Assembly: GCA_048882385.1 (NCBI GenBank)
Contig: JBHLRQ010000027.1
Span: forward strand, 1-34,824
DNA: 34,824 nucleotides
DNA from: Candidatus Thorarchaeota archaeon
GTDB taxonomy: Archaea; Asgardarchaeota; Thorarchaeia; Thorarchaeales; Thorarchaeaceae
Direction: 5' to 3'
This document shows positions 27,152 to 29,334 of the stretch, piece by piece (position 1 is the stretch's first letter; each line of letters opens with the position of its first letter). The notes under the pieces were generated by a model. That model did no database searches. It saw only the letters and a program-made list of their open reading frames with translations, and had not been told where the DNA came from. Position numbers and translations under genes: made by a program.

Positions 27152-28204
27152 TTAGGCTTTGTTAGTGACATTATACATTCCTTGACGACTATCTCTTAAC
27201 GAGAGTTTCTTGTCAACAAGTCCTTCACTCATGAGAAGTGATAGTGCGTATCTAACGGTACGTGGGGGGAGTAGTGTTTCCTCTATTATTTCCTTCTGGG
27301 TAAGCTGTCCTTTATATTCAAGAATCTTGAAGACAAGCTTTGCACTTGGGGGAAGTTCTTGGGCGATTTCTTCAGTTGTTTCAGTTTTTCTCAGTAATTT
27401 TCCTCTAAGTGCTGCGATCCTCTCTTCAGCGAATTTGACGAAAACTGCACTGGAATCTGCTTTCCGAATATGTACAGGTTGGTCGTCCACTTTTCTTCTG
27501 ATCTGACCATCAAGTACAGCTTCGACAGTCACAGAACTTGTCAAGTCGCGAATCTCAAGATTAAGAACATCTGACAAAACAAGGGGTCTTCTTGCTGGAT
27601 TGACACTATTGACAGGAATTACTGATAATACTGGAGATGATGGTAAAATGACTGGTCCTCCCACGCTCAATGAGTATGCCGTGCTTCCTGTTGGCGTAGC
27701 CACAATGAGTCCATCACTTCCATCTTTCCAGAAGTGCTCTCCATCTATGAAGAGGGAGTATCGAATCAGCGTTGCACTTCTCCGAGCAAAGATTCCAATG
27801 TCATTCAAGAGAGGAGGTGTTTCCTTTCCCAATATTTCCGCGACTATCCTTTTTCGTTCTTCCTTCTTCCATCTAAGGTCTAGAAGATCGCTAATGACAT
27901 AATCAATACTTGAGGACGATATTTCAAAGAGGAAATCTGGTTGACCTTTTGATGCCAATGGGAGAATTGGAACATCTCTCTTTCCCAACTCAAGGAGTTT
28001 CCTTAATAGTATTCTATCAGACCCAATTATCGCAATTAAATCAACATCCATCTTTCTGATATTTGTCCCACTAGAATCTTTCAGAATTGTTGCTAGTTTA
28101 TCCTCTAGCATTAGATCAACACCGCTTTTATTTAGAACATCGATGACATTCCGTGCGTCTTCCAGTATGCTTGATTCCAATCCCGATGCGATGCCTATTC
28201 TCGT
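27152..28204 (-). CDS. NAD kinase-fold protein fused to a C-terminal winged HTH; apparent ACG start
   Basis: LND, [21 protein letters not shown], RPLV and DGQ motifs. GGDG is replaced by GSDR. C-terminal [47 protein letters not shown]8-ACG gives (M)RIGIASG (track start TTG 28180). Confidence 0.85.
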   Translation of the reverse strand, partial: [350 protein letters not shown]

Positions 28205-28279
28205 TTAATCTGCCTCCTCTGGCTATAGGATGATTATCCAAAGAACTGGAAGTCACACTTAAATCACACTGAATCTGAA

Positions 28280-28307
28280 TTGGCAAAAGTTGCCAAATGT
28301 TTGTCAA
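28280..28307. promoter_or_regulatory. Candidate operator: TTGGCAA-AAG-TTGCCAA palindrome plus a third TTGTCAA box
   Basis: Perfect 7-3-7 dyad at 28280-28296 and a further box at 28301-28307, lying between the divergent NADK-HTH gene and nadA. Confidence 0.65.
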
Positions 28308-28332
28308 CTATTCATTAATTGCCGATTGAAAT

Positions 28333-28340
28333 TTTATTAA
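28333..28340 (+). promoter_or_regulatory. Putative TATA box for nadA
   Basis: TTTATTAA ending about 35 nt upstream of the nadA ATG. Confidence 0.4.
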
Positions 28341-28374
28341 AAGGTCAATTATTTGAAATTCACATGGTGGTCTG

Positions 28375-29334
28375 ATGGAACGTGACATCAAAGGCTTGCA
28401 GGATGCAATTCTCAAACTCAAGAAGGAGCGAAAATCTCTCATTCTTGCACATAACTACCAAACTATAGATATCCAAGAGATAGCTGATTTTGTTGGTGAT
28501 TCTCTTCAGCTTGCCAGACAGTCTGCAGAAGTCAAAGGTTATGACATGGTTATCTTTGCTGGAGTGAAATTCATGGCTGAGATGGCTGCAGTCCTATCAC
28601 CAAACATACCAATATACATCCCAGATCCAAAAGCCCTCTGTCCTCTTGCTGGCTATCTTGATGCACAAAAAATACGAGAGAAGAAGAAAGAGTACCCCGG
28701 GGTACCTGTAGTTGTTTATGTAAACACCACAGCGGAAGCAAAGTCAGAAGCTGATATGATATGTACATCTGGAAGTGCTGTAGAAGTTGTAGAATCACTT
28801 GGTGTTGATCGAGTTATTTTTGGTCCTGATGCCAATCTTGCGGAATACGTCCGTACTCACACAGATGTTGAAATAATAGATATTGACACTAGAGGTCACT
28901 GCTACGTACATAATATGTTTGATCTAAGTATGTTGATAGAGATGAAAGAGCAATATCCTAATTCTATTGCCATAGCTCACCCAGAGTGTCCTATAGAAGT
29001 GCAAGAACAAGCCGATATGATCGGGTCAACTGGAATGATGGTTCGCACAGTAGCAGAGTCTGACGCCAAAGTTTTCATCATTGCCACTGAGATGGGTCTT
29101 ATTCATCAACTACAAAAAAGACACCCTGAAAAGACTATCATCCCTATGTATGAGGGAGCAGTCTGTCGCCAGATGAAGAAGCATACTCTAGAGAAGATCC
29201 TCGATGTTTTGCAAAATCTGCCACCTGATAATATTGTAACCGTTCCTGAGCCGTTTATTCCACATATTCGAGGAATATTAGAAAAGATGAACAAGGTAAA
29301 AGGTCAAGGTCCAGCTGTGCAGGTTGAGGTGTGA
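28375..29334 (+). CDS. nadA: Quinolinate synthase NadA
   Basis: ILAHNYQ, GDSL, GVKFMAE, CPLA, YVNT, CTS, FGPDANL, CYVH, AHPEC, GST, TE, C..MK. Confidence 0.95.
   Translation: MERDIKGLQDAILKLKKERKSLILAHNYQTIDIQEIADFVGDSLQLARQSAEVKGYDMVIFAGVKFMAEMAAVLSPNIPIYIPDPKALCPLAGYLDAQKIREKKKEYPGVPVVVYVNTTAEAKSEADMICTSGSAVEVVESLGVDRVIFGPDANLAEYVRTHTDVEIIDIDTRGHCYVHNMFDLSMLIEMKEQYPNSIAIAHPECPIEVQEQADMIGSTGMMVRTVAESDAKVFIIATEMGLIHQLQKRHPEKTIIPMYEGAVCRQMKKHTLEKILDVLQNLPPDNIVTVPEPFIPHIRGILEKMNKVKGQGPAVQVEV

Follow-up and report, generated by a model that had tools for sequence, protein, structure and literature searches.

What is a gene that looks like an NAD kinase, and that carries a winged helix-turn-helix (wHTH) at the C-terminal end of its product, doing head-to-head with nadA, the gene for quinolinate synthase, in the genome of an Asgard archaeon? 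The pair lies on contig JBHLRQ010000027.1 of Candidatus Thorarchaeota archaeon (GCA_048882385.1; 3.70 Mb in 256 contigs, completeness 95.3%, contamination 4.94%), in a stretch of 34,824 nt that we refer to throughout as the window, and we use the name NKR for the NAD-kinase/wHTH fusion. A first-pass annotation of the window, made from its letters alone, proposed that the fusion senses NAD(P) and controls de novo NAD synthesis, and the support that we report for this regulatory reading is comparative-genomic. NKR joins the fold of an NAD kinase to an altered motif pattern, the same genome holds a canonical paralogue, the linkage of the fusion to genes of NAD metabolism is conserved, and a palindrome in the shared spacer co-occurs with the gene. 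Judging from these sequence comparisons, NKR is probably a one-component transcription factor that tunes NAD synthesis to the cellular NAD(P) level. The described regulators of NAD metabolism (NadR, NiaR, NrtR and NadQ) include repurposed enzyme folds joined to helix-turn-helix (HTH) domains and, to our knowledge, none of them uses the fold of an NAD kinase; a full-text search of the literature returned no regulator built on that fold in any domain of life and no transcription factor of NAD metabolism in Archaea.

The coding region of NKR extends over 27152..28204 on the reverse strand, 350 codons if it is read from an ACG at 28204-28202, and the mechanically called open reading frame (ORF) covers 27152..28180 (342 amino acids) with a TTG start at 28180-28178. 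The nadA gene, divergent as first described, occupies 28375..29334 on the forward strand and is the sole copy in the genome, encoding a protein of 319 amino acids (NadA in Pfam, E=7.5e-99; 348.4 bits against a cut-off of 294). The TTG-started frame and nadA are 194 bp apart, and the intergenic interval originally given, 28205-28374, agrees with the probable N-terminus of NKR at 28204. Residues 125-249 of NKR match NAD_kinase_C (PF20143, E=3.1e-21), the N-terminal domain reaches only E=0.068 against PF01513, and a sequence comparison with the PDB matches 7mh7 (E=1.3e-23). The AlphaFold model, made with a 65-sequence alignment (predicted local distance difference test, pLDDT, 92.9; predicted template modelling score, pTM, 0.78), consists of the two domains of an NAD kinase, a long linker helix and a winged helix, with low confidence at residues 267-275. 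Compared with the PDB by Foldseek, it matches NAD kinases only, over ~280 columns, among them 7qvs_A, the Pseudomonas aeruginosa enzyme with NADP (E=2.9e-27, TMt 0.83), and 4hao, 2an1 and 1suw (TMt 0.85 each); no solved chain among the matches listed covers the wHTH. Canonical NAD kinases (e.g. P. aeruginosa 7qvs, Archaeoglobus fulgidus 1suw and Mycobacterium tuberculosis Ppnk 1u0r) have the two-domain fold in common with NKR (TMt 0.79-0.85), as well as region II, the NE/D motif and the dimer interface predicted for NKR, and NKR differs from them in its GSDR sequence, in the loss of N-x-G-x-LGFL and in the addition of ~70 residues that form the linker helix and the wHTH.

Three conserved motifs, GGDG, NE/D and region II, characterize NAD kinases, and GGDGT is present in 124 of 127 archaeal members, as given in the excerpted text of PMC8553519. 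In NKR, the short NE/D motif (LND, 27800..27808; these and the following motifs are all on the reverse strand) and the 22 residues of region II, which contribute to the NAD pocket and the dimer interface (27653..27718), are both retained, leaving the NAD-binding half intact as the first-pass annotation had it. The GGDG loop reads GSDR at exactly the coordinates first assigned to it (28013..28024, residues 53-56): the Asp is kept, the second Gly is replaced by Ser and the fourth by Arg, and the next residue is Ile, not Thr. The N-x-G-x-LGFL motif is changed as well, to ASKGQPDFL (27929..27955, residues 76-84), which pairs in the alignment with N-R-G-S-L-G-F-L of the P. aeruginosa enzyme. Thirteen of 14 aligned orthologues (56-85% identity) combine GSD(R/K) with a replaced N-x-G-x-LGFL and the remaining one has GGDR; because the same changes recur among orthologues, they are no sequencing accident.

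Whether the cell has another enzyme for the reaction, a question raised when the locus was first annotated, is answered in the affirmative. The NAD_kinase_C model matches three places in the genome: NKR, a 378-aa GGDG protein of a different subfamily on contig C5, and a 289-aa canonical NAD kinase on contig C66 in which GGDGT, N-R-G-F-V-GFL and region II are all intact. NKR is not the cell's NAD kinase. We also considered the NCBIfam model NF002984, on which NKR scores 143.5 bits and the C66 kinase 220.6 bits, both below the equivalog cut-off of 326. Since the canonical paralogue fails too, the cut-off is too strict for this phylum and uninformative here, and it was dropped as proof of lost kinase function.

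The C-terminal wHTH (27167..27349, reverse strand), seen already in the first-pass annotation, is borne out by the AlphaFold model, in which it forms three helices and a two-strand wing (H286-298, H303-310, H314-326, E330-334 and E342-346 in 350-aa numbering), with R-T-V-R in the recognition helix and pLDDT of 82-98 over residues 281-350. In Pfam, residues 278-333 give weak matches to MarR_2 (E=1.1e-4, 22.8 bits, cut-off 27) and HTH_24 (E=1.6e-4, 21.6 bits, cut-off 21.9), TrmB scores 13.8 bits against a cut-off of 25.6, and some orthologues have precomputed matches to PF12802 or PF13412. A scan of 1.84 billion representatives returned 82 proteins at E<=1e-30, 64 of which reach the end of the wHTH and, together with the window protein, make up a family alignment of 65 fusions (27-56% identity to the query). 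In this alignment the NE/D motif has Asn in 65/65, followed by E in 46 and D in 19; the residues of the NAD pocket are almost invariant (N134 65/65, D164 64/65, G173 65/65, S174 64/65, D232 65/65, R236 62/65), as are other residues of region II (T170 63/65, Y177 58/65). The recognition helix and wing are conserved to the same degree as the pocket (R315 62/65, T316 64/65, R318 58/65, D338 61/65, R340 60/65, Y344 62/65). The GGDG loop, in contrast, is relaxed, with Gly at the second position in 27/65, Asp kept in 55/65 and absent in 10/65, and the fourth position occupied by Gly in 20/65 and by Arg in 22/65, the altered donor loop carrying Arg or Lys in 25/65. Read from the alignment, such a distribution of constraint is what one would expect of a protein that senses a ligand and binds DNA, and not of an enzyme selected for turnover.

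The same family includes members that look different. An intact GGDG together with N-C-G-E-LGFL is found in 16 of the 65 representatives, and these fusions (e.g. P0141, P0152, P0155, P0166, P0172, P0190, P0191 and P0194) are candidates for true bifunctional NAD kinase/regulators; since they keep both motifs, the family probably began as a bifunctional kinase-regulator. Organism names were sought for ten proteins, of which eight belong to these 16 and the other two are a GGDG and a GDDG member; two of the ten were named, from Micrarchaeota and Diapherotrites. As for quaternary structure, a homodimer model of NKR reaches an ipSAE of 0.43 against 0.00 for the best of three controls, a narrow pass of a mark that is reached by 20 of 30 proteins solved as same-chain pairs and by one of 23 solved as single chains, with contact agreement between runs of at least 62% and pLDDT of at least 78. 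The predicted interface (residues 153, 174, 179, 182-194 and 206-214) lies in region II and the strand 206-211, and since NAD kinase dimers have already been solved, the pass may merely mirror this likeness.

The strongest argument for the function of NKR is, judged from gene order, that its linkage tracks changes in the NAD pathway. In a sample of 301 genomes of the phylum, a fusion was scored when a match at E<=1e-30 reached residue ~338. It is present in 86 genomes, 49 of 76 in family f1 (to which the genome studied here belongs), 24 of 28 in f5, five of seven in f20, three of five in f16, two of four in f15 and the single genomes of f8 and f2, with no match in the other families searched within the sample; nadA is present in 257 of the 301. 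Linkage was assessed by tblastn on fetched loci, 29 others from f1 and 20 distant ones. Among the f1 loci nadA is divergent and adjacent in 26, two run into a contig end and one has nadA 2.8 kb away. Among the distant loci nadA is divergent in 13 (both f15 loci, the f2 locus and 10 of 11 from f5), with nadC after nadA in nine, and five others adjoin a gene for nicotinate phosphoribosyltransferase (NAPRTase; 473 bits, cut-off 243), which is directly downstream on the same strand in the three f20 loci and convergent in the two f16 loci; the f8 locus and one f5 locus have no NAD gene within 5 kb. A nadA gene is found in 0/7 f20 genomes and 1/5 f16 genomes. Since the partner of NKR switches from nadA to NAPRTase where nadA is mostly not found, the linkage follows NAD metabolism itself, and the proximity of orthologues to nad genes that the first-pass annotation proposed to look for is seen across the phylum in the form of nadA, nadA-nadC or NAPRTase. 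A separate search with the pattern TPTGSTAY was dominated by ordinary NAD kinases, two of its 80 loci being fusions. Outside the phylum, a Nitrososphaerales metagenome-assembled genome (L005:1835-4334) has a 41%-identical fusion with GGDR that is divergent from a 'Sugar_tr' transporter of the major facilitator superfamily (MFS). Niacin transporters of the NiaP type belong to the MFS, and this neighbour may be a salvage-uptake target.

If NKR acts on nadA, a DNA site would be expected between the two genes, and alignment of the nadA/NKR spacers reveals a palindrome, GGCAA-N3-TTGCC. Its first copy, site 1, is in the window the centre of a perfect palindrome, TTGGCAA-AAG-TTGCCAA (28280..28296, core 28282-28294), 93 nt before the ATG of nadA; all 27 f1 loci have site 1 with at most one mismatch (22 of them exactly), mostly 93-96 nt from the nadA start. 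A second and less perfect site, mostly GTCAA-N3-TTGCC, is found 29-30 bp downstream of site 1 in 24 of the 27 loci and ends 2-3 bases before a conserved pair of promoter-like elements, one resembling the transcription factor B recognition element (BRE) and one TATA-like (TTGrrAT, TTTATTAAAAG). In the window this pair reads GATTGAAA and then TTTTATTAAAAG (28324..28343, forward strand), assigned to nadA by position and conservation on the general consensus of archaeal promoters, and the position of site 2, 29 bp past site 1, is occupied by a degenerate TTCAT-TAA-TTGCC (28311..28323) with its right half intact. The promoter of NKR itself, on the reverse strand, has a conserved TATA-like element, CACTTAAATCACAC as read on the forward strand (28256..28269). 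Because the distance from the palindrome to this element is variable (5-30 nt), the palindromes are phased to nadA. At the distant nadA-linked loci the palindrome occurs with at most two mismatches in 12 of 13, in f5 in the form GGCAA-N3-TTGCT; upstream of NKR in the NAPRTase-neighbour lineages and at the Nitrososphaerales locus it was not found, except for one chance-level match with two mismatches, and any operator in these would be of another sequence.

Natural losses of NKR provide a further comparison, in nine f1 genomes that have nadA and no match to the fusion. A gene for a metallo-beta-lactamase/beta-CASP protein, the neighbour of NKR on its other side, abuts nadA in seven of the nine, from which it follows that NKR is cleanly missing there. 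The palindrome (at most two mismatches) is absent in seven; one of the nine has a 39-residue gene remnant and one exact site, and one has site 2 with one mismatch and a decayed site 1 with two, making it missing or decayed in eight of the nine relatives. The TATA-like element of NKR is kept in the gene-less relatives, where it faces the beta-CASP gene (inherited CACTTAAAT). Clean deletions of NKR (L156-L159 and L161-L163) occur in several genomes of the same genus and a sister genus, L156 carries a C-terminal NKR remnant of ~39 residues, and TTGCCG followed by the BRE-like TTGrrAT (28318-28331 in the window) is seen upstream of the nadA TATA independently of the presence of NKR (L156-L164).

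Beyond the shared spacer, the genome contains exact copies of the palindrome that bring the total to four in 3.70 Mb, the two intergenic ones being that between nadA and NKR and one that lies 65 nt before nadE, just upstream of a TATA-like element. The product of this nadE is an NH3-type NAD synthetase of 262 amino acids (NAD_synthase, E=1.8e-82). A position-weight matrix made from 42 family sites gives 44 matches of at least 13 bits in the genome, and the intergenic matches other than those at nadA and nadE (before PNPOx-like and cysteine-synthase-like genes, among others) score lower. Of the other nadE loci of the family, 15 in number, two have the site with one mismatch and three with two, a further two have an off-position two-mismatch match only, and in eight no site was found. 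The genome yielded no aspartate dehydrogenase. The surroundings of nadE (C97:2675-5279) consist of a DUF6989 membrane protein upstream and a 287-aa protein with an N-terminal PadR wHTH downstream, all encoded on the same strand, with the palindrome sitting in the 89-nt gap that precedes nadE.

The beginning of NKR raises a question of its own. The frame is open for eight codons 5' of the TTG (T-R-I-G-I-A-S-G, 28204..28181), right after a TAA at 28207-28205, and because these residues match the first beta-strand of solved NAD kinases in the alignment and form a strand in the model (pLDDT 97), the N-terminus is probably at 28204. In 27 distinct f1 loci (from L085-L113) the codon before the first strand (R/K-I/V-G-V-x-S-G) is ACG in 19, ATG in seven and TCG in one, and it follows a GGAGG by 6-9 nt; in the window, the GGAGG is at 28213..28217 on the reverse strand, 8 nt 5' of the ACG. 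The seven codons after the putative start vary synonymously (TCG, TCA, TCT or TCC for Ser; GGC, GGT or GGA for Gly) and are, for that reason, taken to be translated. A stop codon stands directly before the ACG in the window and one codon further 5' in two other loci, and in such loci no canonical start can yield the first strand, which suggests, from the codon pattern, a conserved ACG initiation. Gene callers misplace the starts of this family, putting some too far downstream (at MLED, giving 338 aa) and others a long way upstream (giving as many as 404 aa), and database labels of NKR-like proteins vary among 'NAD kinase', 'sugar kinase' and 'MarR family regulator'.

How might such a protein work? 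In the scenario that we favour, a duplicate of an NAD kinase would have kept the NAD(P) pocket and the dimer interface as its phosphoryl-donor loop relaxed, and would have gained a MarR/TrmB-like winged helix at the C-terminus. A dimer of NKR, or a dimer of dimers spanning both sites, would bind GGCAA-N3-TTGCC just upstream of the BRE/TATA elements of its targets, nadA and in this genome nadE too. NAD(P)(H) held in the inter-subunit pocket would alter DNA binding, and de novo NAD synthesis would in this manner follow the pyridine-nucleotide pool. What we infer in this scenario is that NKR binds DNA, which ligand it takes and with what sign it regulates, the sign being most likely feedback repression by the ligand-bound form, by analogy with NadR, NiaR and NrtR.

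The effector domains of these three bacterial proteins are NMN-adenylyltransferase/RNK in NadR, 3H in NiaR and Nudix in NrtR, and a Pfam scan of NKR (E<=0.1) returned NAD kinase and HTH families only, with no Nudix, 3H or NMN-adenylyltransferase/RNK match. NrtR, the Nudix-related regulator of bacterial NAD metabolism (Rodionov et al. 2008, PMC2330246), is in the excerpted account similar to NKR in that an NAD-related enzyme fold is reused as effector domain and is followed by a C-terminal winged helix, and it controls NAD synthesis genes including nadA; it differs in being bacterial, of Nudix fold and unrelated in sequence. NadR (PMC5397151) and NiaR (PMC2330245), as far as the excerpts of these sources describe them, exert the feedback control of de novo NAD synthesis that is proposed for NKR and likewise consist of one domain for DNA and another for a nucleotide or niacin, but they are bacterial and have neither of these domains, nor their operators, in common with NKR. 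The closest parallel is RbkR, the archaeal riboflavin kinase/wHTH regulator (Rodionova et al. 2017, PMC5397151), which in the part of that paper excerpted is, like NKR, an archaeal one-component regulator that combines a kinase domain of a cofactor pathway with a winged helix, has operators (predicted ones in the case of NKR) before pathway genes and its own gene, and was identified by comparative genomics. The candidate sites of NKR are placed in the RbkR manner, in the shared nadA/NKR spacer and upstream of nadE. According to the same source, RbkR is an active CTP-dependent kinase, the only RibK of its genomes, with an N-terminal wHTH, whereas NKR has the fold of an NAD kinase and a C-terminal wHTH, its donor loop is remodelled, and it is not the sole copy, the canonical kinase on C66 being present beside it. 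The remodelled loop and the co-occurring kinase, unlike the situation in RbkR, point to a sensor-only paralogue.

Several results weigh against the scenario that we favour. The wHTH matches to MarR_2 and HTH_24 both lie slightly below the Pfam cut-offs. Site 2 in this genome has three mismatches, and its right half, TTGCCG, persists in eight of the nine relatives without NKR, so this half could belong to the basal promoter or be bound by a second factor. Two of the four exact copies of the palindrome are inside ORFs, and the palindrome is not enriched genome-wide (four copies against a mean of 2.8 for 30 controls of the same composition), so that the case for an operator is built on where the palindrome lies and how well it is conserved. 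Only five of the 15 other family loci retain the nadE site in the same place with at most two mismatches, and one of these five belongs to a genome without a fusion match. Upstream of nadB, of the AMMECR1-nadC pair and of the canonical nadK, no site with at most two mismatches was found. The related genomes that enter the counts of linkage and operators are not independent samples. As to the sign, archaeal sites upstream of BRE/TATA are also typical of activators. Finally, the residues vital for M. tuberculosis Ppnk, in the excerpted text of PMC8553519, are the Asp of GGDG, the N and E/D of NE/D and the T and Y of region II, and all five residue types have counterparts in NKR, so some kinase activity may remain.

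This last point leads to the reading, allowed for beside that of a pseudokinase in the first-pass annotation, that NKR is an enzyme and a regulator at once, of the RbkR type: it would still phosphorylate NAD (or NADH), with ATP or polyphosphate as donor, and would bind DNA as well, with substrate and product shifting DNA binding in opposite directions. RbkR sets the precedent, in that CTP stimulates and FMN suppresses its DNA binding (excerpt of PMC5397151), and the retention of the Asp of GGDG, the NE/D motif and region II in NKR, as well as the 16 of 65 family members with GGDG and N-C-G-E-LGFL, would fit. We nevertheless think it unlikely for NKR: RbkR and RibK 'never co-occur' in the words of that excerpt whereas a canonical kinase co-occurs here, the second and fourth glycines of GGDG and the whole of N-x-G-x-LGFL are replaced in 13 of the 14 close orthologues, and the loop is relaxed family-wide, to the point that ten of 65 lack the Asp. 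A regulator of nadA could also answer to an effector other than the NAD(P) pool, such as the NADH/NAD+ ratio in the manner of Rex, nicotinate adenine dinucleotide (NaAD) or nicotinate mononucleotide (NaMN), or ATP or polyphosphate at the altered donor site. The kept pocket residues would suit any adenine dinucleotide, and the donor loop has been altered, not deleted, with its Arg or Lys in 25 of 65; set against this, the linked genes are those of NAD synthesis and salvage (nadA, nadC, nadE and NAPRTase) and not of redox or energy metabolism, for which reason pool homeostasis fits better than redox control, and another effector seems quite improbable.

It is harder still to believe that NKR is no transcription factor at all, with a wHTH that serves protein contacts or is vestigial and a palindrome that belongs to another regulator or to the promoter. 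The sub-threshold Pfam matches of the wHTH, the part of site 2 that outlives NKR and the lack of over-representation of the palindrome would all be expected in that case, and yet the recognition-helix and wing positions are conserved in 58-64 of 65 proteins down to 27% identity, the full palindrome is lost or decayed where NKR is lost, and in the lineages in which nadA is mostly not found the linkage is to a salvage gene instead, so that we give this explanation very little weight. NKR as a sensor of the NAD(P) pool may, in turn, be part of a longer history, which as a whole is possible and rather doubtful: GGDG fusions of small-genome DPANN archaea would be bifunctional kinase/repressors, the Asgard copy would have become a pseudokinase after duplication, the Arg or Lys in place of the fourth Gly would fill the site of the donor phosphate and recognize the 2'-phosphate of NADP(H), and the conserved ACG start would keep the regulator scarce. 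If this enzyme-to-sensor history is true, NKR would be the first dedicated NADP-pool sensor to control NAD synthesis and the first factor of an NAD regulon in Archaea.

The regulatory reading, if true, would add NKR to NadR, NiaR, NrtR and NadQ as a fifth way, evolved independently, of keeping NAD in balance, and would make its targets one of the first Asgard regulons with a predicted operator and effector, and the family would offer a natural series from active kinase to pseudokinase sensor. It makes concrete predictions, namely a 13-bp operator, nadA and nadE as targets (in other lineages nadC or NAPRTase) and a set of candidate ligands.

As for the neighbouring genes, the metallo-beta-lactamase/beta-CASP protein of 715 amino acids is encoded at 24968..27115, 36 nt 3' of NKR on the same strand. 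It is a conserved neighbour of NKR across f1 and f2 and is possibly co-transcribed with it, and the N-terminal half of the protein, ~330 residues, has no assigned domain. Beyond it, at 17701-24967, the window contains a gene for an Eco57I/MmeI-like N6 methyltransferase (727 aa) that overlaps one for a C5 cytosine methyltransferase (434 aa). These are followed by genes for a protein of 565 amino acids, in which a faint wHTH match is the only one, and for a protein of 659 amino acids that has an Arf/Roc/Ras small-GTPase domain (residues 128-260).

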